Positions 20,921-41,861 of a stretch of 64,000 nucleotides of DNA are shown here, one piece after another. Position 1 is the stretch's first letter, and the number at the start of each line of letters is the position of its first letter. Source of the DNA: Alloascoidea hylecoeti (lineage: Eukaryota); the NCBI GenBank assembly GCA_001600815.1, contig BCKZ01000004.1, positions 1,019,566-1,083,565 on the forward strand, written 5' to 3'. The position numbers and the translations under genes are program-made. Below the pieces are notes generated by a model. It did not search any database. It had not been told where the DNA came from and saw nothing but the letters and a program-made list of their open reading frames with translations.

Positions 20921-21251
20921 AAGTTTAAGAATATCATGATCATTATAAATAGATATAGGTATATAAGCTACTATGTAATTAGTTAAACTCGATTGTATTC
21001 AGTTAAATAAACTAGAAATAAAAAGAATAACAATAGAAAGATAGCTCACATTAGAAAGGACCTCCTCTCGACTGCACATCCCGACAATAATTATATAAGT
21101 ACGATTAAATAAATGTGATAAAAAAAATATAGCGGTATTCCTCAATATTGCGAACTACATATATCATCACGGATATTAGCGCAAGAAAAATCACCGGTAA
21201 TCTAGCTGAATTAGCTACGAATTCTTGTGTAGAAATTCCTGTCTTATAACT

Positions 21252-21470
21252 GATATCTCTGAGATTTTGTGGAGTTAATTACAGGGTAGTTTCGAAAGGT
21301 TTGATCATCACCACAAAAGTCATACACCCCTTATAACCTTATTACTAAAACAATAACATTTTTTTTTTGATTTGTTCTCTATTCGCCTATATCCTAGTAA
21401 TTTAGCTCGGTGATATATTGTGATCATAGTTCGTTTTGTTTTATATACATGTATATGGTTAGTAATAAAA
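21252..21470 (+). repeat. Diverged direct repeat, copy 1 (copy 2 at 29061-29290)
   Basis: 30-bp identity GATATCTCTGAGATTTTGTGGAGTTAATTA, then collinear blocks TTTGTTCTxTATTCG, TAGTTCGTTTTGTTTTAT, TTAGTAATAAAA. Confidence 0.8.
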
Positions 21471-22045
21471 GTGAGGAAATATAAATAAATAAAAATAATT
21501 CATATTGATACAATTCAAGTTTCTTTATTTATATTAAGTAGTCTAGTTCATTGAGAAGGTAAACTCGACATAAAGTTTGTTTGGCTTTTCTCAAATGTTG
21601 GACTTACTTAAATATCTAACTAAAGTTCGGAAAAAGTTCAAGAATTTCTGTATCATTCATCATTATTAACCTTTTATGGTTGATTTTGGACTCTAATCGA
21701 AGTACCCGATTTCCGTTCCCAAGAATTCACGATTACTTAGTATCATCATCATCTTAGCGCGTCTGTTACCCTAACACAGACTTACTGAAATGAAATATGG
21801 CTGGCAAAATAATTTTCAAAAACTTCATCATCTTTTTGTCTATAGACTAGGGTGAATTTCTAGACATCCATTTGGTGAACCTGAAGTTGGAAGAACATGA
21901 TCAAAATATTCACCATAAGCAGCAGCTTCTTGAATAGGCAAGTCTTTAAAATCTTGATCTCCGAAAACAACACCTGTAACTACAGTTCCAAATTTTGGCC
22001 AATCATTATTATAAGCAACTACACTTCTTGGAAGTAAATTAGATA

Positions 22046-23198
22046 TGTTAAAGTTCAAAGTGCCTGTTCTCCCAGTTGCGCCATAATTTCTCTTGACTAA
22101 ATGAAGCTAACTTTCTCATATAAAAATATGGAGTCTGATTAAAAGATTTAGTTGCTAGGAGAAACCTGGGTACATCAATTCCCTCGACTTTATTCAAGCT
22201 ATGACTATAGTCGCCTCGTGTCATGATCATGAAGAATTGAAAGTAAAATGCATCAGTGCAATCGTTGATATTCTGACGACGAACATTATTCAGCTCGCAA
22301 ACTGAGATTTTTACCCTGCGCATTGCACTAAGAGTCAAATTTACAAAGAGTATCGAATCAATTAAAGAAGAACCTCGAATCATATGATATTCAGGTCTAC
22401 TGAAATCTACTAAGTCAGCATTTGATGATGCATCTAAGTCAATCCGTCCATTCTTTAATTCAATATCTTCAGACAAAATTCTCTTGTACAAGACATTGTT
22501 TTCACCATCCTCTAACGCTATATTCAANTCTNNCNGTCNNNNNGNATNNNNNNTANTNTNTNTCNNANTNNNNNTNNNNANNNTNNNNNNTNNANCATNN
22601 NNNNTNANNNNNANNNNNNNTNANNNNNNNTNNNNNTNANNNNNNATGNTNNANNNNNNANNNTNNNNANNNNNANTNNGANANANANTANNNNNNATNC
22701 NNNNNGACNGNNAGANTTGAATATAGCGTTAGAGGATGGTGAAAACAATGTCTTGTACAAGAGAATTTTGTCTGAAGATATTGAATTAAAGAATGGACGG
22801 ATTGACTTAGATGCATCATCAAATGCTGACTTAGTAGATTTCAGTAGACCTGAATATCATATGATTCGAGGTTCTTCTTTAATTGATTCGATACTCTTTG
22901 TAAATTTGACTCTTAGTGCAATGCGCAGGGTAAAAATCTCAGTTTGCAAGCTGAATAATGTTCGTCGTCAGAATATCAACGATTGCACTGATGCATTTTA
23001 CTTTCAATTCTTCATGATCATGACACGAGGCGACTATAGTCATAGCTTGAATAAAGTCGAGGGAATTGATGTACCCAGGTTTCTCCTAGCAACTAAATCT
23101 TTTAATCAGACTCCATATTTTTATATGAGAAAGTTAGCTTCATTTAGTCAAGAGAAATTATGGCGCAACTGGGAGAACAGGCACTTTGAACTTTAACA
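22046..23198. repeat. Long inverted repeat: arms 22046-22527 and 22717-23198 (482 bp), 189-bp N-masked loop
   Basis: Arms are reverse complements with one visible mismatch (22296 vs 22948; E/K in the mirrored 159-aa ORFs). Confidence 0.9.
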
Positions 23199-23499
23199 TG
23201 GTAGCGGCGCCGCCACGAGAGGCATCAGGTTCGAGTCCGCCGTAGGACAGTAGTTTACATCAGTCTAATTGAGGCTTACTAGGGTAACGCGTAAATGGCC
23301 CGAAAGTAAAATGTCCGAGTCAGTCTGCAAGAAGTCCGAAACCCGAAAAATCACGGGGGTGAGCAGATATGGCGATTAGTAAAGTGACCTGCCTAAGGTT
23401 GGGGGGTGTGTTGGATATATTACACTCTTGGAACAGTTCACTAAAGAGTCGATTGGCTTTTTGGCGCAACTGGGAGAACAGGCACTTTGAAATTTAACA
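22046..23499 (+). mobile_element. Non-autonomous miniature LTR element with an inverted-repeat cargo; 5-bp TSD AGATA
   Basis: AGATA at 22041-22045 and 23500-23504; TG...CA termini; PBS TGGTAGCGGCG at 23199; PPT GGGGGGTG 23401-23408; LTR TGTT...AACA 23409-23499; last 38 bp of LTR repeated at 23161-23198 and inverted at 22046-22083. Confidence 0.85.
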
Positions 23500-24433
23500 A
23501 GATAATATGGGGCCAGCTTTTAATCCAACGTCTTTAAATTTTAATTTTTCAACTGGTGGATATTTTTCATTTGTATCTCAATATGGTAAATATTAAGCAT
23601 ATTTTGAAAGTTGATGTTCTGTTTTGGTACTGTTAATTTACAATCTTTAACGTTTGCAGTATCATCATTTTCTTTCCAATTACCGTTGAAATGATTGGCT
23701 AAGTCATACAGTTGGGCATTTTTGTGATAGATCAAGCGTTTGAAAATTTAGAGTAGTGGAAGATCTAATTTTTCTTTTGCTGGATCAATTAACGGATTGG
23801 ATAAATTATCCGGGTTTTGTCATGATAATCCGTAAGACATGTCATATGCATATGCACATTGCACATTTCACACTTTAATAAATACTCTACGATCAAGAAA
23901 CATTCGTTTTCTATTGAAAACCCTGGAACTTTTTGAATTTTGGTGTCGTATATAAATTAATTGTTACGGGATAGATTACTAATTTATTAATATTGACACA
24001 CCAGCCCTAAAACTTCTATGAACTTTTGAGTATGAAGTAGTATGAGTACAATGAATACTCCAATGAGTACATTGGAACATAGTAAATGTTAACATCAGCC
24101 ACAAAGCTGATGTTGCGATTTAACTTTACGATTGCGTGTTATTTATATGTACCTTCGCAATAATTACTCTTATTACCTGCATTTTTCCCTCTTCTAACAT
24201 ATCAACATAAGCTTACATGTATATAGCTATATTTCTATAAGTTTAATGGTACTTAATAGTATGTGAAAAATGCCAACGGCTCATAAATATTCAAATAAAT
24301 CAATTATGCATACAACCGATATTGCGTCACATAACTTATACTAAAGACAGTTTAATATGGTTTCACTATAAAAAGAGATGAATGGAATATTCCTTCTGGT
24401 AACTACTTCATTGCTCATTTCTGATTTCTACTA

Positions 24434-26065
24434 ATGTCTAATCATTCTATTGATGGGAAAAATTCAGTTGTGAATATTCAAAGTATTCCCAGCGATAGTG
24501 AAAATAAAGGTGCTGAATCAACACAAAACAAACAACATAATGATAATTTTATTTCAAAAGATGGTCAACTAATCATAACAGAAAAACTTGATAATGTTTT
24601 TAAAGATCCAAATGTTTATTCTTATTATAAAAATGTTTATGAACGTTGTAATTATGAATGTAGACATTTACTTGATCCTGATTTTGAATGGGATAAAAAA
24701 GAAGAAAAAGCAGTTGTTAGAAAATTAGAATATAGAGTTATTTTTTGGGCATGTATGATGTTTATGGCTCTACAAGTTGATAGAGGAAATCTAAATCAAG
24801 CAGTATCTGATAATATGTTAGATGATCTTAATATGATTACAAATGAATATAATCATGGTAATACTATTTTTTTTGCAACTTTTTTAAGTGCTGAACTACC
24901 ATCTCAATTGATTTCAAAAAAAATTGGTCCTGATAGATGGATTCCTATGCAAATTACTCTATGGTCAATTGTTGCTATTTGTCAATGTGCTATAACTGGT
25001 AAAAAAATCTTTTTATGCTACAAGAGCTTTACTTGGTTTTATCCCTGATATTGTCTTATGGTTATCATATTTTTATACAAGTGATGAATTACCTATTAGA
25101 TTAAGTATCTTTTGGAGTGCCCAATTTTTAACTATAATTTTAACTTCAATTCTGGCTTTTGCAATTTTAAGAATGAGAGACATTGCTGGATTAGAAGGTA
25201 TATTTACATTAACTATTGGAATTTTTTCTTTTTTTAAAATGACACCATCTGCTGTTCAAACTAAAACAAAATGGAGACCAAAAGGTTGGTATACAGATAG
25301 AGAAGAAAAAATTGTTGTTAATAGAGTTTTAAGAGATGATCCTTCAAAAGGTGATATGAATAATAGACAACCTATTACACCACTTGAATTATGGCATTCA
25401 TTAACAGATTATGATTTATGGCCATTATATATGATTGGTTTAATTGCCTATATTCCAAGTAAACCATTAAAGAATTATTTAACTTTAGTTTTAAAACAAT
25501 TATGTTTTAGTACTTTTAATACAAATTTATTAACAATTCCTTATAATGTACTTGAAATTATATTATTGTTATTTGTGAGTAAATTATCGGTGATATTAAA
25601 TGAGAAATCTTTAATTTGTTTATCTCAACCATTATGGATCTTACCAACAATGGCTGCGTTAAGATGGTGGCCAGGTTCAATGGTTAAAGTATGGCCAACA
25701 TATATTATTGCAACATTATTACTTGGTGCTCCTTATATTCATGCAATTCTTGTTAGTTGGTGTTCAAAAAATTCCAAATACAGTAAGATCAAGAACAGTT
25801 TCTGCATCTTTATATAATATGATGGTTCAATTAAGTTCAATTATTGTTTCAAATATTTATCGTATATCATAGAGGTAATACTCAATTATTTATAATAAAT
25901 ATTGTTGTTATTATTCTTTTAATTTTAACTAAAATTTATTATATATGGAGAAATAAAACAAGAGATATTAAATGGAATAATATGAGTCAAAAGGAAAGAG
26001 AAGATTATTTAGAAAATACAAATGATAAAGGTAATAAAAGGTTAGATTTTAGATTTTCTCATTAG
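24434..26065 (+). pseudogene. SOA1: Soa1/YIL166C-like sulfonate transporter (Dal5/allantoate permease MFS) pseudogene
   Basis: YECRHLLDPDFEW...DRGNLNQAVSDNML...AELPSQLISKKIGPDRWIP...NRVLRDDPSKGDMNNRQ...GNKRLDFRFSH broken over three ORFs by frameshifts (~25005, ~25775) and short deletions. Confidence 0.85.
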
Positions 26066-26444
26066 ATCAGTATCTTGTTTTTATGTATTTATTTGTGTAA
26101 TTTATTATATTTTATAAAATTTAAATCTATAGTTCAAAACATACAAGGAATTACATTAAACATTAAAATCAAAAGAACATTCAATAATAAATTCAAGCAG
26201 TCCTTTTAAATATCCATTAATTTCTTCATCTGGAAATGATTCAATAGGCACTTCCACAAATATATAATTTTTTAGATCTTAATTCAGCGGCAGGAAGATT
26301 TTGAACGAGTTTTAATTAAACAACTACTAATTTCATAAAATTATCCCAGATACAATATCAACCATATCAACTTCAGTTGAGTTTTAAATATTGATTTTTG
26401 TTGATTATATGTAAGAACATGGTGGAACAAATTTATAGTTCATT

Positions 26445-26813
26445 ATTTTATTTCTAGTCCTAAAAGTTTTTCAATGTAATTGATTTGAACTGATTCTTTT
26501 TGTTCATGTCTTCTTCTTCTAGTGCCTCTTGGCAGTATTATATTCCCTTCATTGGTTGAAATTAATAAGTTTTTCGGAATATGTAATTCTTCANCATCAA
26601 ATGTNNNNNNTNNNNNNNNNNNNNNNNNNNNNNNNNNNNNNNNNNNANNNNNNACATTTGATGNTGAAGAATTACATATTCCGAAAAACTTATTAATTTC
26701 AACCAATGAAGGGAATATAATACTGCCAAGAGGCACTAGAAGAAGAAGACATGAACAAAAAGAATCAGTTCAAATCAATTACATTGAAAAACTTTTAGGA
26801 CTAGAAATAAAAT
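26445..26813. repeat. Inverted repeat of copia RT sequence: arms 26445-26604 and 26654-26813 (160 bp), 49-bp N-masked loop
   Basis: Arms are reverse complements, with a mirrored N at 26594/26664. Confidence 0.88.
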
Positions 26814-27766
26814 TAACTAAAAACAATGAAAATTTAAGATGCTTATTAATGAAGAAAGAAGGAGCAATAAAAGAAATCGGATTAGAATTAGATCTTGGGG
26901 ACGAGACAAATAATAAAATTATGAAAGCTTTAATTCCTTACAAAGCTAATAACTTTATAAGAAAAGAGGAATTAACAATGACAAAACTCAAATTTGACTA
27001 TAGAAGGGTTCTAGGTATGATAATGTATATATCTAATTCCTATTTTTGTTCCTTCTCCTGATGTAAACCCAATACCTATAGATATGACATAACCTATATT
27101 TGCAATTATATCAGCAGATACACAGATTACAAGTGTAAGGAAACATCAGAGATGTTAATTCAACTTGGAAGATACTTAACAAATACAAAAGAATTTGGCT
27201 TAAAAATCAAAAAATCTCTGAAATTTATTTCTGGTCTTGCAAGAATCGATTTTTATATTGATGCAGATCACGCTAATGATAGAGATGATAGATATAGTAC
27301 TTCTGGTGCTTTGATGTTATTGAACAACAACATTATCTACTATCATAGCAAATTGATGAGAATTGATGTCAAGAGTAGTTCAGAAAGTGAACTTTGTTCG
27401 TTAGATTTATCAATGGATAAAATAGACCGATTAAAGACACAAATATCTTGGGGTTATTTAAAAAGGTAGAAATAAAAATTTATGAAGACAATATGCCAGT
27501 AATTCTTTGGATCACTGGAATAAAGAATTATAAGATGAGAACAAAAACCTTGGATAACAAGTTGAAAGTGTTAAGAAGGAGATTTAATAAAGAATCCAAA
27601 TCAAAAGATGAGGTAGATTCATGGAATGAAAATCTTATCAAAATTGATGGTAAACTGAATCTAAGTGATTATCTTACTAAACCCATACCAAAGGGTGAAT
27701 TTCTATCATTAAGAGATAAATTGAACAACTCACTTTAAGTGACTTGAATACACAATTGAGAAGGAG

Positions 27767-28018
27767 TGTTGATTATATGTAAGAACATGGTGGAACAAAT
27801 TTATAGTTCATTATTTAGATTAACTAGACTAAATAGTTTTTGGGGATTCCATAATTTATATGGAGGAATTCCTACATTTTAGAAAGTATCGTAAAAATAT
27901 AATATAATAAATATATTCATATTTAATTTCCAAGAGTTTAAGAACAACGTGTTTATACAATCTGAGGACATCAATTAACAATGAGCGAACAAGAATCAAC
28001 ATCTAATTCTATTCAACA
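27767..28018 (+). repeat. Copia 3' LTR, 252 bp
   Basis: TGTTGA...TCAACA termini directly after the PPT; first 50 bp identical to 26399-26448. Confidence 0.92.
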
Positions 28019-29060
28019 ATTTTAACATCAATTGGTAATTTATTTAATATTTCTTCATTACGACCAAATCCAGTGATCTTTTTAGCACCAAAATGACGTT
28101 CCATTTGAATTGACAATTGACCACTAGCACGCACTGGTAACTCCCAAAATACCTACTGTGAAATTGGCAGGCAAAACATCTAATGATTTAACTCTTCCTG
28201 CTAAAGCCAAATAAGCAGACATGCTGGATTAGTCAATGCAGTGATCTTTGCATTTTTTCGGTGGTTAACCCCTTTGGAAGAGGTACTATGCATACAACGT
28301 TTCAGCTATCACAATATTGTGTATATATATTAACATTTAATTTTGACTACTTTAATTTGTACATTAATAAAGATATCCAATATTGTTAAATAAGAACATT
28401 TTATTTGCTTTTAAGGATAATCAATTATATAATATTGTAACGCTTATAGAGCAATCGTAACGTAGAGCTTATAATTAACTAACTTCATATCTTTACGGAG
28501 TTTATAATTAATATTATTATAAAGGTGTATAACTTATATGTAAGCTTATATCATTGTATTTATAACTTTATAGTATATGGTTCTTGGTCTTTGAGTTTTA
28601 TTAATGTGCGGAAACTTGGAAAAAGGAGGCCGTAATTTACTAGTAGAGTATTTTGATTAAGTTGATGAGCAGGAATTAAGATTATGGGTTTACAAACGGT
28701 GTAGAAATGAAAGAAAGATTTATCTTTTGAATCTCTTTCAAAATACTGGAACTTTATAGAATTGGAAATCATTGATAATCTGATTAATTTCAAGTCTTGT
28801 ACAATCCATTTTGTGGTAAAGGGCAGCTAACACTAGTAAAGAGTAGATTTAAAATTTTTGTTATATATAAACTAATATAATCTTTAGTATATACCATTTT
28901 AAGAATAGTTTAAGATCTTATAGAATATTCAGTGGCTGGTTATATTATTGCCATCCCTTTTGAAGGGTGCCCAAAAAAAAGTGGTTCCGGTTTAATGTGT
29001 TAGGTGTTGTACATCAGTGAGCTGACTCCTTATGTAGAAACTTTCCTTAAACTTGTAATC

Positions 29061-31164: not shown

Positions 31165-31753
31165 TTAAGTACCAATAATAATCCCAACGATTATTCCAAT
31201 TAAACATAAAATTATAAAACAAATTGATATTAAACCAGATATCAATTTATATTTATTTTCGACCATACCAATTGTATTATCTAAACAACCAAAAGTAATT
31301 AATAATAATAATGGAGGACATGTAAAACTCATACAAAAAATTAAAGAAATTGACATATTTGATGGACATTTTTTAATAAAATTTTGATAATTATTATCAA
31401 TTTCTAATTCTTTATCTTTAAAATTATATATAATTTTTTTTTTTTTTTTTAATAATAATTTATTATTATTTAAAGATGATGATAAAATTGGTGGGAAATA
31501 AGTTGTTGGTGGATAATATTTATAAGAAATATATGATTGATTTTGATTTAAATTTAAATTTAAATTTAAATTTACAGTTGATAAATCAATTGATTTTTTT
31601 TTACTTCTTGTTATTGATAATGAATTTTTTATATTAATTTGTTGTTGTAAATTTAAATTTAAGTTTGATTTTAATCTAGTTTTTGAATGATTTTCAAATT
31701 GTGGTAAATCTAATGATTCTAAATCATTTTCAATTTCAATTTCAATTGATGAT

Positions 31754-31790
<37 letters not shown>

Positions 31791-33582
31791 CTTTTATATT
31801 TGATTTTAAACTTGTTTTTGAAATAGATTTTGATTTTATAATCATTGAATTAAAAAAATTAAATGGTGGTGATGATTGAATTTTTGATATTAAACTATTA
31901 TTATGTTTTAATTTATCATCATCTTTAATATTTATATTATTTGCATTGGTTGAAATTGTTGATTGTAATTGAAGTTTTAAACCAAGATCATATATTGTAA
32001 ATTCAGGACTGTTTAAAGGAAAAGGAAATGATGGTGTAATACTTGAATTTGATAATGATGAAACATTAGATTTTGGAGTTGGGATTAAATGAGGTCTTAA
32101 ATTTGATGATGATGATGGTGAATTATATGATCTTGGAGATGGAATAAAAATTGGAGGACTATTATGATTATTAATGAAATTAAATTGATTTATATATGCA
32201 GATGATTTCTTATTATTAATTGGTTGATAATTATTTAAATCAGATGGTGATGGAGGATATAAAGAAGGAGTTTTAAAAACAGGAGTATTTGGTAATTTTA
32301 TTGATGGTGTTATAAAAGTTGATGAATTTGGAGTAATTGGTAGTTTTATTGATGGAGTATTTGGTGGATTTATAGATGGTGGTAATGATTTTCTTGAAGA
32401 TTTTAAATTTTTAATTTCATTATCATTATCATTATCATTTGTTTTAGATATCATTACAGTTGATAAAGGTAAACCTTTAATACTTAATCCTAAACCATTA
32501 CTAAGATTACTATCAATTATTAAAGATTTTCTTGTTGAAGTTGATTGTATTCGATTTGGAGAAGTATGAATTTGATTTGTTGTTTCATTAAAATTATCAA
32601 TTAATTTAATTGATCTTCTTTTAATTGAATTATGATTATCATGTTTTAATGGTTGTGAAGGTGATTCATATTCAGATTCAGATTCAGATTCAAATTGAGA
32701 TTGTAATTGTGATTGTAATTGTAATTGTAATTGATTTTGAAATTTGTTATGTCTTAGACGGGTATTTGATAAACGTTTTGAATCAAATGGCCAGATTGAT
32801 TTTAAAGAATCATCACGATTTGAAATATTCATATTCGTATTCATAACATTATAATTATTATTAATAAAAGGCGGTTGTATTAGTTGGGACTTATTATGAA
32901 GATTTGATATTGATAAATTTGAAACCGATTGAAACAGCATTTCTGTAGGGACGGTTTCCAGAGTATCAGAAATTAAGGAGGAAGAAGTGTTGCAGTGTTT
33001 GTACTTTAGATTCTGCAGATTTTGTATACCTGCATTATTATCCAATGAGCTATTCAACGGACTGCTCGAAGACTTTGGAGGTTTTGTTGGATAGTAAGAA
33101 ACAGTTGGAAAATGGCTTACAGGACAGTTCAGTTTTGCTTTTCCAGCCGAACGTCTGTTCACATTTAAGATTGGCAATTGACTTGAATTAAGTTCAGTGA
33201 ATCCACTACTGAGGTAGACGGGGATATAGGCTTTGTTGATGTTGATGTTGTTGTTGTTGATGTCGTTGTCGCAGTCGTCCACACGTCGCAGCCGGAGGGT
33301 GTGAGGAATGTTCTGCGCCGGGTGGGTCTTGCCAGCGTCGGAGCCGAGCAGACCCAGGTCCGACAGAGACAGCTTGGTCTCTTTTTTTTTTCTGAGAGCG
33401 GCCGGAGTCGACATATGCGAGCAGCCAGCGGGGGGGCAGCCCTCGTCAGCGGGGGGGCAGCCCTCGTCAGCGGGGGGGCAGCCCTCGTCTGGGCAGCCCT
33501 CGTCTGGGCTGCCAAAGCACAGCGGCTGGATCGTCATGCTGCCCTCGTGGATGGAGATTCGGTTCAGGGAAGACACCTCCAT
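31165..33582 (-). CDS. Low-complexity protein with C-terminal two-TM hairpin, Bud8/Bud9-like
   Basis: Long S/N/P-rich region, then IFCMSFTCPPLLLLITFG and a terminal LIGIIVGIIIG segment, as in Bud8/9-type tails. Start codon uncertain (first ATG 33582). Confidence 0.55.
33426..33513. repeat. GC-rich minisatellite: 3 x 21 bp CAGCGGGGGGGCAGCCCTCGT plus shorter 15-bp variants
   Basis: Units at 33426, 33447, 33468; encodes (DEGCPPA)n on the minus strand. Confidence 0.92.
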
Positions 33583-33640
33583 TCGCAGTTTCTTTCTAAC
33601 AATACACGCAACGGTGGAAAACAATAAATTAAATTAAAAT

Positions 33641-35806: not shown

Positions 35807-35909
35807 NNNNNNNNNNNNNNNNNNNNNNNNNNNNNNNNNNNNNNNNNNNNNNNNNNNNNNNNNNNNNNNNNNNNNNNNNNNNNNNNNNNNNNNNNNNNNN
35901 NNNNNNNNN
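35807..35909. other. Assembly gap with overlapping duplicated flanks
   Basis: N run; ATTATCATATATTATATTATT...GTCCTCCGGTTATTAGAAATTTTAT occurs on both sides and differs mainly in homopolymers. Confidence 0.9.
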
Positions 35910-38900: not shown

Positions 38901-40781
38901 TTGTGTTGGAATTTCCCTGGCTACAAAAGAATTAATATATCTCTGTTATAATTATCAATAATTAGTACTAGTAGTTACAAGCTATAAGATTGGTATTAGT
39001 AAAACTTTATCTGAAAAGTTTACATCAAGGAAAAATTGGCGTATATTATTTAACAATGGAAAATTAGAGTTGTATATTAAGGTTGCTATATCGTGCAAGT
39101 TCTTAGAAGTTGGAGCAATTACAAGCAGGTACCGGTTGCTACAAATATTAGAAATAGTATTTAGATTATATATAAAGAGTAAATTATCCTATCTAAATGG
39201 GATGGATATCAAGAAAGATTATTAGAATTGTGTAAATTTTACAATTTGTGTGTGTCTTATTATTATTTTGTTATAATTAACATTAAGTATTTACAACGTA
39301 TTACGTATTGATCTATTATCTAGAATACATCATCGTGTACAATTACGAATTTAGAATATATAAAATTTATACCAAATGTGGAAGCTGTATTTAAACTGTA
39401 CAAACTTACAGTACATTTACAAGATGGAATTCCTCTTTTTACTTAAAGAATATAATCGTTTAGATTCATACCACAAACAATCTAAATATCGACATCTATC
39501 AGATATGTATGTCAAATTTAAAGATTGCATATATGTGGGCTTTTACAAAAACAATCATTTCGCAACAAAATACATTAACTTTTTAAGTCAGTTATACAGA
39601 AATTGTTTTGAATGTTGGACCATAACTGCAAATTTTATATGCGCGGCCGGGCAAAGAATAAGCTTAAGCTTATTTTTTTTCGGGTCATCACTATAAATAA
39701 ACAGGTCCAGAATACAACCATCCATCGAGGACCTCTAAAAAACTTCTTAAAATGGTGTTTCCGTAAGTTCTACAGATTCTACTGGTCTATATAAAATGAT
39801 ATCTTAGGTTTAATATTAGTGTTAGCGCCCTTAACGTCATAAACGGCATTCTAAATCCTAGTCTATACCATCAGATTTACAGACCCAGAATTTCATATAT
39901 TCATTTGGTTCTTCTCAGAAATGGTCTTTACAAGCAAAAAGATTCAATATCCATGCTTTTTAGAATGGTTCTTAGGGTGGGGTCTTTGCTTGAAAAAAAA
40001 GCATAAGTTTAATCTTGGACCTGGCAGTATATAAGATCTTATAGTGTGTGAATGCGTAAACCTTCTGATAAACTTCTCATCGAAACCTTAATAATATTTT
40101 ACTATTTCGAAATATTTTACACGAAAACATATTATACCTATACTAAAGATACCTTTGTAATGAATCCAAATGCACAAACCCATTGGCACTGTAGATTAAC
40201 ATATTTGGCTGTTACGGAGAAGCATTCAGGGAAGGACTAAATGAGAAGTGTATAACCGGTAGCAATATATACCTTTTACTCAGGCTCTTGAAGTGGTATT
40301 TTTCAATAGAACAATACTCCAATCCATAAATCAAAAATATTGGTTGCTGTTGCAAAAGGATATGTTGTTGACAACTGGGATTGTATCTAGTGATACTTAG
40401 ATAGGTTAGGAGATGTTATCATATATTTTTTAATAATATTATATAAGAATGAACATATATTGTTAAAGTTACGCATGTTAACTTACTTCCCTTAAATTTT
40501 CGTTGAAGATACGGATGCCCACTCACAAATCATTCTTGCGTATATGTTTGATCAGAGCAATTATACCTTTTTTTTATTACCTATTGGATCGTGAGCGGAA
40601 CTACTAGCTAGATAGGTCGAACCCTGGACCCGATACCGATCAGAAAAAAATATTTATCTATATTGAGCTTAGCAATTACTTCAACTAAAAATTTTGTTTT
40701 ATTTTATAATTGTATTTAAAAGTTTTCTATATTGCTATTTTCAGTTAAGAGTTTCTACATTTCTTTTGTGAATATGAAATT

Positions 40782-40864
40782 GGTAATCTGGCCGAGTTGG
40801 TCTAAGGCGTCAGGTTAAGGTCCTGATCTCTTCGGAGGCTAGGGTTCGAATCCCTAGGTTATCA
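40782..40864 (+). tRNA. tRNA-Leu(AAG), intronless
   Basis: GGTAATC/GGTTATC acceptor stem, TGGCCGAGTTGG A-box, TCAGG-TTAAGGT-CCTGA anticodon arm, long variable arm CTCTTCGGAG, GGTTCGAATCC B-box, downstream T-tract. Confidence 0.96.
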
Positions 40865-41861
40865 TTATATTTTTTATCATTTTTTTGGATGAGCGCTCCA
40901 CAGCTCGACCCTCCGTAGATCAGCTGTGGTTAAAATTTATTCTCTCGTACCATTCTCAAATTGTTACCTACAATATCCGATTCGATTCTCATTAGTGCAT
41001 TATATATACCTTCCTCACGTTCCGTATAATGACAAATAAATTTGAATACTTTGTCCGTATAAATAGGGTTTTAATGGGTATAATACTGTAATTGATTGAG
41101 AGAATCTTGAGCTCATAAATAACTGAATTGCCCCTGGAACACTAAAATTTATTTTGATTATATTTGATTGCTTAATTAATGTCATCACAACTCCAGGAAT
41201 AATCATATATTCATGCATATACATATGCATTTTCTCACACTCTTCCCACCTATTAATAACGCTATTAAAGAAAATAATCAGTGATAAGTCTGGGAGTTAA
41301 TTGGCGTTGTTTCCGTAAATTGATTAGCCTTCACTTTGAAAATTAGTTAAAAAAATTCAGATATAATAAATAATTGGTGATCTTTATAATTATTCTTTTC
41401 TTAGAGGATTTTGGTACTAATTAACCATATGTAGTCACAAGTTGGCGTTATATTCGAAATTTATTTAAATAATACGATGGTAATTAATTAGCGCTATGTT
41501 ATCAAATTACTTAGGTGATCGGTTTGGATTAATATACCAGTATAACTTATATAGTTAGTCACTTTTTCGAAATTTAACTAGTGCTGTATGCGAAATATAA
41601 GGTTACTTATATGTGCTTTTTTGGATCACAATTTATAAACATAAAATCCTGATTTAAAGCACCAATTCATAGGGGAATTATTACTAAATATAATAAAAAT
41701 CAACTTCACTAAATTGTCTAAATATCACTGGAGACAATTTTATTGGTCGATATTGATATTCCTTCTCTTTTCAGTTACAACCCGTTTTAATCGCTTTCCC
41801 ATGAATCCTCTAAAAGGCGATGAAGAACATTAACATTACCTTTCAATATAATCTCGGAAGC

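Follow-up and report, generated by a model that had tools for sequence, protein, structure and literature searches.

Endogenous viral elements (EVEs) of non-retroviral origin have been attributed to the reverse transcriptase (RT) of retrotransposons, reportedly in the cases of lymphocytic choriomeningitis virus (LCMV) with intracisternal A-type particle (IAP) elements, of viral DNA of insects with long terminal repeat (LTR) elements, and of EVEs of mosquitoes. Retroviral enzymes are also known to self-prime strong-stop DNA in vitro, and very short LTR elements are known as terminal-repeat retrotransposons in miniature (TRIMs). It has been shown that LTR retrotransposons capture mRNAs in yeast, plants and animals by microsimilarity-dependent template switching (PMC5131818), and such LTR-mediated retroposition has been studied in yeast with Ty assays (Derr, 1991; Schacherer, 2004; Maxwell and Curcio, 2007; all as cited in Tan et al., 2016, PMC5131818). 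Furthermore, yeast chromosomes have captured nuclear sequences of plasmid and viral origin (NUPAVs; Frank and Wolfe, 2009) and capsid genes of double-stranded RNA (dsRNA) viruses (Taylor and Bruenn, 2009) (PMC5499181, PMC2823675), and endogenous phenuivirid N and MP genes have been described in filamentous fungi (PMC12326667). Here we describe a locus in a 64,000-nucleotide stretch of the budding yeast Alloascoidea hylecoeti (GCA_001600815.1, contig BCKZ01000004.1, positions 1,019,566 to 1,083,565), hereafter the window, in the coordinates of which all positions are given. Within it, an insertion of a miniature LTR retrotransposon (element 1) holds a long hairpin, each arm of which carries what is apparently the first ~55% of a nucleocapsid-like coding sequence from an uncultured virus-like lineage. 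We consider it probable that this cargo reached the yeast chromosome in an aberrant complementary DNA (cDNA) of the miniature element, the donor most likely being a negative-strand RNA virus of fungi.

A Miniature LTR Element with Two U5 Termini

The window is AT-rich nuclear DNA of the budding-yeast type, in which 15 of the 18 large open reading frames (ORFs) scanned match ordinary eukaryotic families in Pfam, including PEX6, SRP68, DHHC palmitoyltransferase and glycogen synthase; the cargo lies in this host chromosomal DNA, between host genes. Element 1 is a single insertion (22046-23499) with the order arm, loop, arm, primer-binding site (PBS), 210-nt interior, polypurine tract and 91-nt LTR, and is bounded by identical copies of the target-site duplication AGATA (left, 22041-22045; right, 23500-23504). 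Once the insertion and one AGATA are removed, the flanking minus-strand frame becomes continuous (26 + 67 codons). For the interrupted host ORF, Pfam recognizes no family in the flanking 88-aa ORF and the ESM Atlas yields only weak leads (below 0.9).

The left terminus (22046-22083, minus strand) begins with TGTT and represents the final 38 nt of the LTR in reverse complement, probably R-U5; LTR positions 54-91 match 22083-22046 at 97.4%. The same 38 nt are fused to the cargo in the plus orientation at 23161-23198 and recur at 23462-23499 as the end of the complete 3' LTR (23409-23499, plus strand, 91 nt, TGTTGG...TTTAACA). Thus, the LTR end occurs three times in the insertion, the copy at the left terminus being inverted, and the termini of the insertion, TGTT...AACA, are both U5 ends with AGATA on either side. 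LTR ends at both termini and a target duplication are accordingly present, in a variant U5/U5 form instead of the usual U3/U5.

Directly after the second copy of the LTR end lies the PBS (23199-23211, plus strand), TGGTAGCG followed by GCGCC, and we take TGGTAGCG to be of the initiator-tRNA-Met type. The interior of the element (23199-23408, plus strand, 210 nt, 52% GC) has no ORF, is multi-copy in the reads and ends with a purine run adjoining the 3' LTR (23395-23408, plus strand) that presumably serves as the polypurine tract. The boundaries of the LTR are fixed by the reads, in which many different sequences precede 23409 and follow 23499/23500, and the normal joint between the LTR end and TGGTAGCG is present in one run (X2). 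Given the LTR, the PBS that follows it, the non-coding interior, the purine run that precedes the 3' LTR and the normal joint, element 1 is a miniature, non-autonomous LTR retrotransposon. The 91-nt LTR family has a summed read-contig depth of ~1000 times single copy and the interior tens of times single copy; despite this abundance of the LTR in the reads, the 64-kb window holds a single copy of element 1.

The Hairpin and Its Open Frame

The palindrome extends over 22045-23199, with arms proper of 482 nt each (22046-22527 and 22717-23198) that are identical but for a single base (22948, mirrored at 22296), A in the right arm and G in the left, which changes Lys to Glu. Within the arms, the cargo comprises 148 codons at 22084-22527, with its sense on the minus strand, and 148 codons at 22717-23160 on the plus strand. 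The plus-strand frame is open from 22516 to a TAA at 23194-23196 and its minus-strand mirror from 22728 to 22048; outside the N-containing loop, each arm has 159 sense codons (22717-23193 in the right arm), of which 148 precede the LTR end and 11 continue into this 38-nt end. The original prediction, made from the letters of the sequence, was that each arm is free of stops over 148 codons before the LTR end, has no ATG at its loop-side edge and, in DNA where stops are frequent, looks like a segment from the interior of a genuine gene. All of this is borne out: the frame is read in both arms, TTG is the codon that adjoins the loop, and the arm frame has no Met before residue 49. At the composition of the arm, the stop probability is 0.075 per codon, so that 160 open codons have P ~4e-6 per frame, and only 1 of 20,000 shuffles of the arm had any of the six frames fully open.

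The loop (22528-22716) consists of 189 nt, 127 of them N, and is written as a consensus of both orientations. The letters other than N are exactly self-complementary and amount to 33% of the positions; ~27% of letters kept is expected from the base composition for a consensus of a sequence and its own reverse complement. The loop letters thus fit such a consensus, and the orientation of the loop is therefore not settled in the assembly.

The Cargo Is a Fragment of a ~306-Residue Protein

A phmmer search with the arm peptide against 1.84 billion representative proteins gave 21 matches at E<=1e-3. The closest one, P0001 (170 aa), is encoded on a 14-kb contig from a genome at NCBI and shares 88% identity with the peptide of the right arm over 104 residues; the others are ~300-330 aa long and 26-39% identical, apart from three of the 21 that are longer (504-591 aa), and the best full-length matches have ~305 aa and 30-38% identity. 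The arm peptide aligns to approximately residues 20-172 of the family proteins. A profile of the family (306 positions), built without the window sequence and without P0001, matches the left and right arms over positions 42-170 with E values of 1.5e-26 and 1.9e-26, respectively, and nothing else in the 64-kb window. The similarity of the arms to the family is therefore significant and, at the level of sequence, is what would be expected of an EVE, and the earlier view of the arm as an internal gene fragment gains a concrete parent.

No family was detected by Pfam in the arm peptide, and no Pfam domain in any of the 14 family members scanned. The cargo peptide shows no similarity to P0032, a copia-type Gag-RT protein (best E 1.5), which rules out the possibility that the cargo is an ORF of the partner element itself. 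The original prediction had found no gag, pol, transposase or recognizable yeast housekeeping gene in the arm, in agreement with these results and with the match to the ~306-residue family. Its proposal of a plasmid donor found no counterpart, a tblastn search of a plasmid collection with the arm peptide having returned no match.

The cargo of the right arm covers family profile positions ~20-170, and from the profile match the loop is predicted to be continuous with the left arm and to hold the ~20 missing N-terminal codons together with ~130 nt of the 5' untranslated region (UTR) of the donor RNA. The distance from the contig start to the match in short contigs with relatives of the family, ~80-225 nt, is compatible with a UTR of this size.

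With the exception of P0001, the members looked up are encoded on contigs of 1.0-3.1 kb and, in one case, 7.5 kb. A scan of metagenome contigs of the Joint Genome Institute (JGI) yielded 199 relatives of the family, 80 of which were used for the contig statistics given below; the contigs of these 80 are 1.1-3.9 kb long.

A Nucleocapsid-Like Family

The AlphaFold model of the member P0002, built with an alignment, has a predicted local distance difference test (pLDDT) score of 87. Compared with BFVD, this model has only two matches at E<=1e-3, both to ophiovirus nucleocapsid/coat proteins (E 5.9e-6 and 5.3e-5, probability 1.0, TM-score 0.41-0.43), and most of the weaker matches are to nucleoproteins from other viruses of the negative-strand type. 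Ophiovirus nucleocapsid proteins, and not the discovirid NP, thus give the best fold matches. A search of the PDB by sequence gave nothing at the thresholds, and the ESM Atlas gave no usable match to P0002.

On 30 of the 80 contigs of relatives, the family ORF is accompanied by a conserved neighbor of ~350-480 aa on the same strand, located upstream in 29 of the 30. The model of this neighbor has four matches in BFVD at E<=1e-3, each of them to an Ns/NS1 protein from Penicillium discovirus or a related negative-strand mycovirus. Ten of the 80 contigs measure less than 1.5 kb, five of those ten being 1.09-1.25 kb, and the contigs of 1.1-1.25 kb that were inspected contain the family ORF alone. 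Their size matches that of the S segment of discovirids, which encodes the nucleoprotein and has 1.1-1.2 kb, the M segment, with the Ns gene, having 1.7-1.9 kb (ICTV profile, PMC10770929). No RT, gag or integrase domain was found in the 82 neighbor ORFs scanned (of 84).

A conserved A-run is present in 73 of 83 inter-ORF gaps of the relatives' contigs. Its interpretation as a mononegavirus gene junction was withdrawn, given that the neighbor ORF matches discovirid Ns and that the contigs are circularly permuted or terminally redundant. A separate observation concerns an upstream ORF of one contig (L005, 461-907), which has a weak match to the Pfam family Mycovirus_RNAse (PF20614; E 8.6e-4, below the family cut-off).

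Taken with the contig sizes, the fold matches suggest that the family is viral, and we think it very likely that its members are nucleocapsid proteins of negative-strand RNA viruses that form an uncultured lineage, with fungi as the probable hosts. At the level of the fold, this lineage is most likely related to ophiovirus and discovirid proteins. An RNA virus or another selfish element had been suggested, as speculation, as a possible donor of the cargo, and the short contigs, the ophiovirus-like nucleocapsid fold and the discovirid Ns-like neighbor favor this suggestion.

Representation of the Locus in Sequencing Reads

Six sequencing runs contain part of the stretch, four of them at least half of the sampled words; these four, from three studies, were compared as contigs. 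They are X1 and X2 (isolate) and X4 and X5 (wood-decay metagenomes), and are treated as DNA runs, the run type being a guess from the records. The cargo is found with 0 differences in X1, X2 and X5 and with 1 difference in X4, and thus is present in host DNA data from independent sources. In X1, X2 and X4, a 301-nt contig (22890-23190) spans the cargo/LTR junction, and a 195-nt contig stops exactly at the loop edge, 22717. The cargo and its junction to the LTR are accordingly observed in read contigs, in addition to the anatomy, the homology and the junctions that are observed in the window. At 22948, X1 and X2 have only A and X4 only G, with one of each in the two arms of the window, which suggests that the arms are homogenized within strains by exchange or that one variant was dropped.

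Cargo/LTR Junction and a Proposed Route of Capture

Identity to the LTR begins at TGG (23161-23163), that is, at LTR position 54. At the same point, P0001 retains a Trp and continues with family sequence, including a conserved Gly-Tyr-Arg motif; because P0001 has the same Trp codon, TGG is taken as common to the donor and the LTR, a microhomology of 3 nt. The junction thus displays the microsimilarity that is characteristic of LTR-mediated chimeras, albeit in a weak form, 3 nt by themselves being weak. Between the cargo and the LTR end, U3 (LTR positions 1-53) is missing, and the switch therefore falls at the expected 5' end of the element RNA. Within the LTR, ~40 nt upstream of position 54, a TATA-like run read by eye may relate to the start of this RNA at R. 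A read-through transcript from an upstream gene into the full LTR was also considered and is ruled out by the absence of U3 between the cargo and R-U5.

We propose the following path, in which the order of the steps, the identities of the templates and the content of the loop are inferred. Minus-strand strong-stop DNA would have been primed at the PBS and would have copied U5 and R up to the 5' end of the element RNA. There would have been no transfer to the 3' R; the 3' end of the strong-stop DNA would have paired via TGG with a plus-sense viral RNA at approximately codon 170, and synthesis would have continued along the viral RNA towards its 5' end. The new DNA may then have folded back and copied itself, producing the second arm, R-U5 and the PBS, and leaving the 189-nt loop. 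Next, the hairpin strand would have acted like plus-strand strong-stop DNA, annealing at the PBS to an ordinary minus strand of the element, after which both strands could be completed. The linear product would have had a U5 end at each terminus and would have been inserted by integrase into an open reading frame, with a 5-bp duplication. The proposed path reproduces every part of the insertion in the observed order and orientation.

A Second Hairpin-Bearing Insertion

About 3 kb from element 1, there is a second insertion with a hairpin, apparently an aberrant cDNA of a copia-type element (element 2; 26399-28018, plus strand), flanked by the target duplication ATTTT (26394-26398 and 28019-28023). 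It starts with the first 50 nt of its LTR (26399-26448, plus strand; identical to 27767-27816), followed by the left arm (26445-26593, 149 nt), which overlaps the LTR piece by 4 nt, a loop in N-consensus (26594-26664) and the right arm (26665-26813, 149 nt), which runs on into a frameshifted pol to 27735; a purine tract (27758-27766) and a 252-nt 3' LTR (27767-28018) complete the insertion. The palindrome (26445-26813) has 149-nt arms without N and with 0 mismatches. Pfam has no match in the pol pieces of element 2, which are 95% and 85% identical to P0032 (869 aa; Retrotran_gag_2 above the cut-off and RVT_2 just below it), and by this similarity the element is of the Ty1/copia type.

In this case, the snap-back of the minus strand would have occurred within pol and been followed by a switch to the beginning of plus-strand strong-stop DNA, and the switch point is marked by a 4-nt microhomology. 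Tested for snap-back synthesis, both hairpins have arm ends that fit cDNA landmarks, and the apexes of both lie in the N-consensus loops. Two apparent fold-back cDNAs with landmark-exact ends and their own target duplications argue against an assembly artefact as well as against later formation of the palindromes.

Alternative Explanations

A number of observations count against our interpretation; they bear on the direct donor, on the viral nature of the family and on the integrity of the assembled locus, and are best weighed along with the alternatives that they favor.

It is possible, if on balance rather unlikely, that the cargo is ultimately viral but that its immediate template was RNA transcribed from an older endogenous copy in the genome, with no replicating virus at the time of capture. 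P0001, with its 88% identity to the cargo, reaches further into the gene and joins the same LTR family at a different point, its last 16 residues matching the translated start of the element 1 LTR (13 of 16, E 5e-7). In addition, a 95-nt read contig over 22817-22911 has 7 differences from the cargo (7%), and at least one further, diverged copy of the cargo must therefore exist elsewhere in the genome. The P0001 junction and this second variant together imply that the direct donor may have been an older endogenous copy, and the GC content of the cargo (34.5%) is below the entire range of the environmental relatives (minimum 35.8%, median 45.5%). Conversely, the frame is fully open in both arms, and at third codon positions the cargo, with a GC content (GC3) of 0.32, still clearly exceeds host genes, which have 0.17. 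In any case, an older copy would change the donor only and not the mechanism.

It seems unlikely that the family is non-viral, i.e., a cellular or plasmid-borne gene of uncultured eukaryotes that is seen as transcripts. The members that were looked up are all named only "hypothetical protein", no polymerase gene was found on any of the 80 contigs of relatives, and a scan of IMG/VR with the family alignment produced 5 pattern matches, of which 0 were confirmed. The viral assignment rests on fold matches of low TM-score (0.25-0.43), the pLDDT of the neighbor-ORF model is only 60, and Foldseek found no solved structure at E<=1e-3, the top row being a phenuivirus nucleoprotein with E 0.65. VIA-align, run against 48,161 chains, reached a best Z of 3.2; several of its alignments, of 144-205 residues, are to mononegavirus nucleoproteins, with Z in the uninformative range. 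Moreover, direct repeats are present at the termini of 7 of the 80 contigs, with units of 2.6-2.95 kb, and two contigs, L016 and L017, are a circularly permuted pair, which is unusual for a bunya-like segment. Together with these two, the contigs L042, L044, L047, L063, L071 and L079 look circular or concatemeric, which suggests a circular or concatemeric replicon with the Ns-like and nucleocapsid-like ORFs on one strand. A non-viral origin, however, does not account for the fact that two adjacent ORFs independently match folds of negative-strand RNA virus proteins or for the agreement in size between the 1.1-1.25 kb contigs and the discovirid S segment (PMC10770929); nor does it fit the contigs of the 31 cluster members looked up, among which only P0001 is on one longer than 7.5 kb.

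An assembly artefact, whereby the assembler or chimeric reads would have created palindromes at LTR repeats in a genome that has a single cargo next to an LTR, is very unlikely. It would explain why both palindromes, which lie within 4 kb of each other and beside repeats, have symmetric N-consensus loops, and this way of writing the loop of element 1 makes its predicted content unreadable. The depth of the cargo is only ~1.5-1.9 times that of flank-like contigs, in a genome that may be heterozygous. For the right flank (23503-23629), X1, X2 and X4 offer nothing but a contig that starts at 23503 without LTR sequence and departs from the window at 10 positions in 127 nt, identically in all three runs. 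Compared with the 0-1 differences in the cargo, this implies that those runs and the window may differ at this locus, and at the right flank the reads may stem from another strain, a different haplotype or a paralog; the host junctions, 22045/22046 and 23499/23500, are known from the window assembly only. Yet the outer ends of the palindromes fall exactly on landmarks, at the U5 terminus and 5-bp duplication in element 1, and at LTR position 50, with the 4-nt overlap and the duplication, in element 2; faulty assembly would not put them at such points. The arm contig stops exactly at 22717 in three studies, as if two different sequences followed the arm, and short reads would be expected to leave the loop open where the arms exceed the insert size.

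Least likely of all is formation of the palindrome after integration, in which integration came first, with a simple chimera of cargo, R-U5, PBS and LTR, and its left part was later duplicated in inverted orientation by fold-back replication or repair. In its favor, fold-back inversions are known in yeast, the arms differ at only 1 of 482 nt, and the A/G site looks homogenized within strains, as by exchange between the arms at the DNA level. Against it, the left terminus is the exact inverted U5 end, which ends in CA and abuts the same 5 bp as the right LTR, and a later duplication would remake neither an integrase-type end nor the target duplication. Lacking an LTR end on its left, the simple chimera would also have offered integrase no substrate, and the second hairpin follows the same logic of a template switch to the LTR start.

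Other Features of the Window

Between the two insertions lies a transporter-like gene (24425-26065) with a weak match to the major facilitator superfamily (MFS), split over three overlapping frames (24425-25048, 24996-25817 and 25835-26065); it could be either a pseudogene or the product of base-calling indels. On the minus strand at 31165-33633, an 822-aa open frame without a Pfam match lies in the GC-richest part of the window (41% GC) and contains a short repeated Pro-Ala-Asp-Glu-Gly-Cys motif near its start as well as long low-complexity runs. A run of 103 N (35807-35909) is an assembly gap. A tRNA scan of the window identified only a tRNA-Leu (40781-40865), and Rfam had no match over 21000-28000.

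Implications and Comparison with Known Systems

The capture of non-retroviral RNA by the RT of a retrotransposon is usually inferred from eroded fragments. Here, the product is kept whole: besides the PBS and the target duplication, the locus retains the strong-stop junction where R starts, the apparent fold-back and the two integrase ends, so that a single locus suffices to read the order of events. The two cases within 4 kb, one of them through two U5 ends, indicate that fold-back cDNAs can integrate. If the viral assignment is correct, a lineage of budding yeasts has encountered a negative-strand, bunya-like virus. In the open-access literature, we found no report of a negative-strand-type nucleocapsid element, or of such viruses, in Saccharomycotina, and none of integrated fold-back retrotransposon cDNAs.

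A long, near-perfect inverted repeat of a viral gene is a natural substrate for RNA interference. It is conceivable, though improbable, that the hairpin is a heritable antiviral trigger, with the 482-nt inverted repeat being transcribed into long dsRNA that matches the nucleocapsid mRNA of the virus exactly and is diced into small RNAs against it in a yeast competent for RNA interference. If so, the nearby copia hairpin would act likewise against its own retrotransposon, snap-back reverse transcription would be a route to hairpin loci that record past infections, and the locus would give the first indication that negative-strand RNA viruses have budding yeasts among their hosts.

Among known systems, element 1 resembles TRIMs by its short LTRs (91 nt), its PBS and purine tract, its non-coding interior of 210 nt and its multiple copies in the reads; the copy described here differs by lacking the U3 of the 5' LTR, in place of which it has the hairpin. 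With non-retroviral EVEs, the locus shares an RNA-virus sequence that was apparently reverse-transcribed by the enzyme of an LTR element and fixed beside LTR-element sequence. In contrast to these EVEs, the host is a budding yeast, the whole insertion is kept, with PBS, purine tract, LTR and duplication, and the viral part is an inverted repeat.

The NUPAVs and dsRNA-virus captures of yeasts are likewise fragments of genes of non-retroviral replicons in yeast nuclear chromosomes. However, the reported cases (PMC5499181, PMC2823675) come from dsRNA viruses or DNA plasmids, whereas the present cargo is nucleocapsid-like, of the negative-strand type, and has a retroelement as its vehicle. The phenuivirid elements are comparable as genes of bunya-like viruses endogenized in fungal genomes; they belong to filamentous fungi, and the portion of that report used here (PMC12326667) does not describe retrotransposon junctions or a hairpin.

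In mechanism, the closest analogy is with LTR-mediated retroposition, as described by Tan et al. (2016; PMC5131818). In both cases, a fragment of a foreign RNA, the donor being partial, is joined to LTR-element sequence at a short common motif, and the product has integrase-competent LTR ends and a target-site duplication. Unlike in that system, the switch at the present locus appears to have taken place at the very start of R, on strong-stop DNA, and there is no switch back, a fold-back instead apparently giving a 482-nt palindrome with U5 at both termini. Finally, the donor here is virus-like, not a host mRNA.

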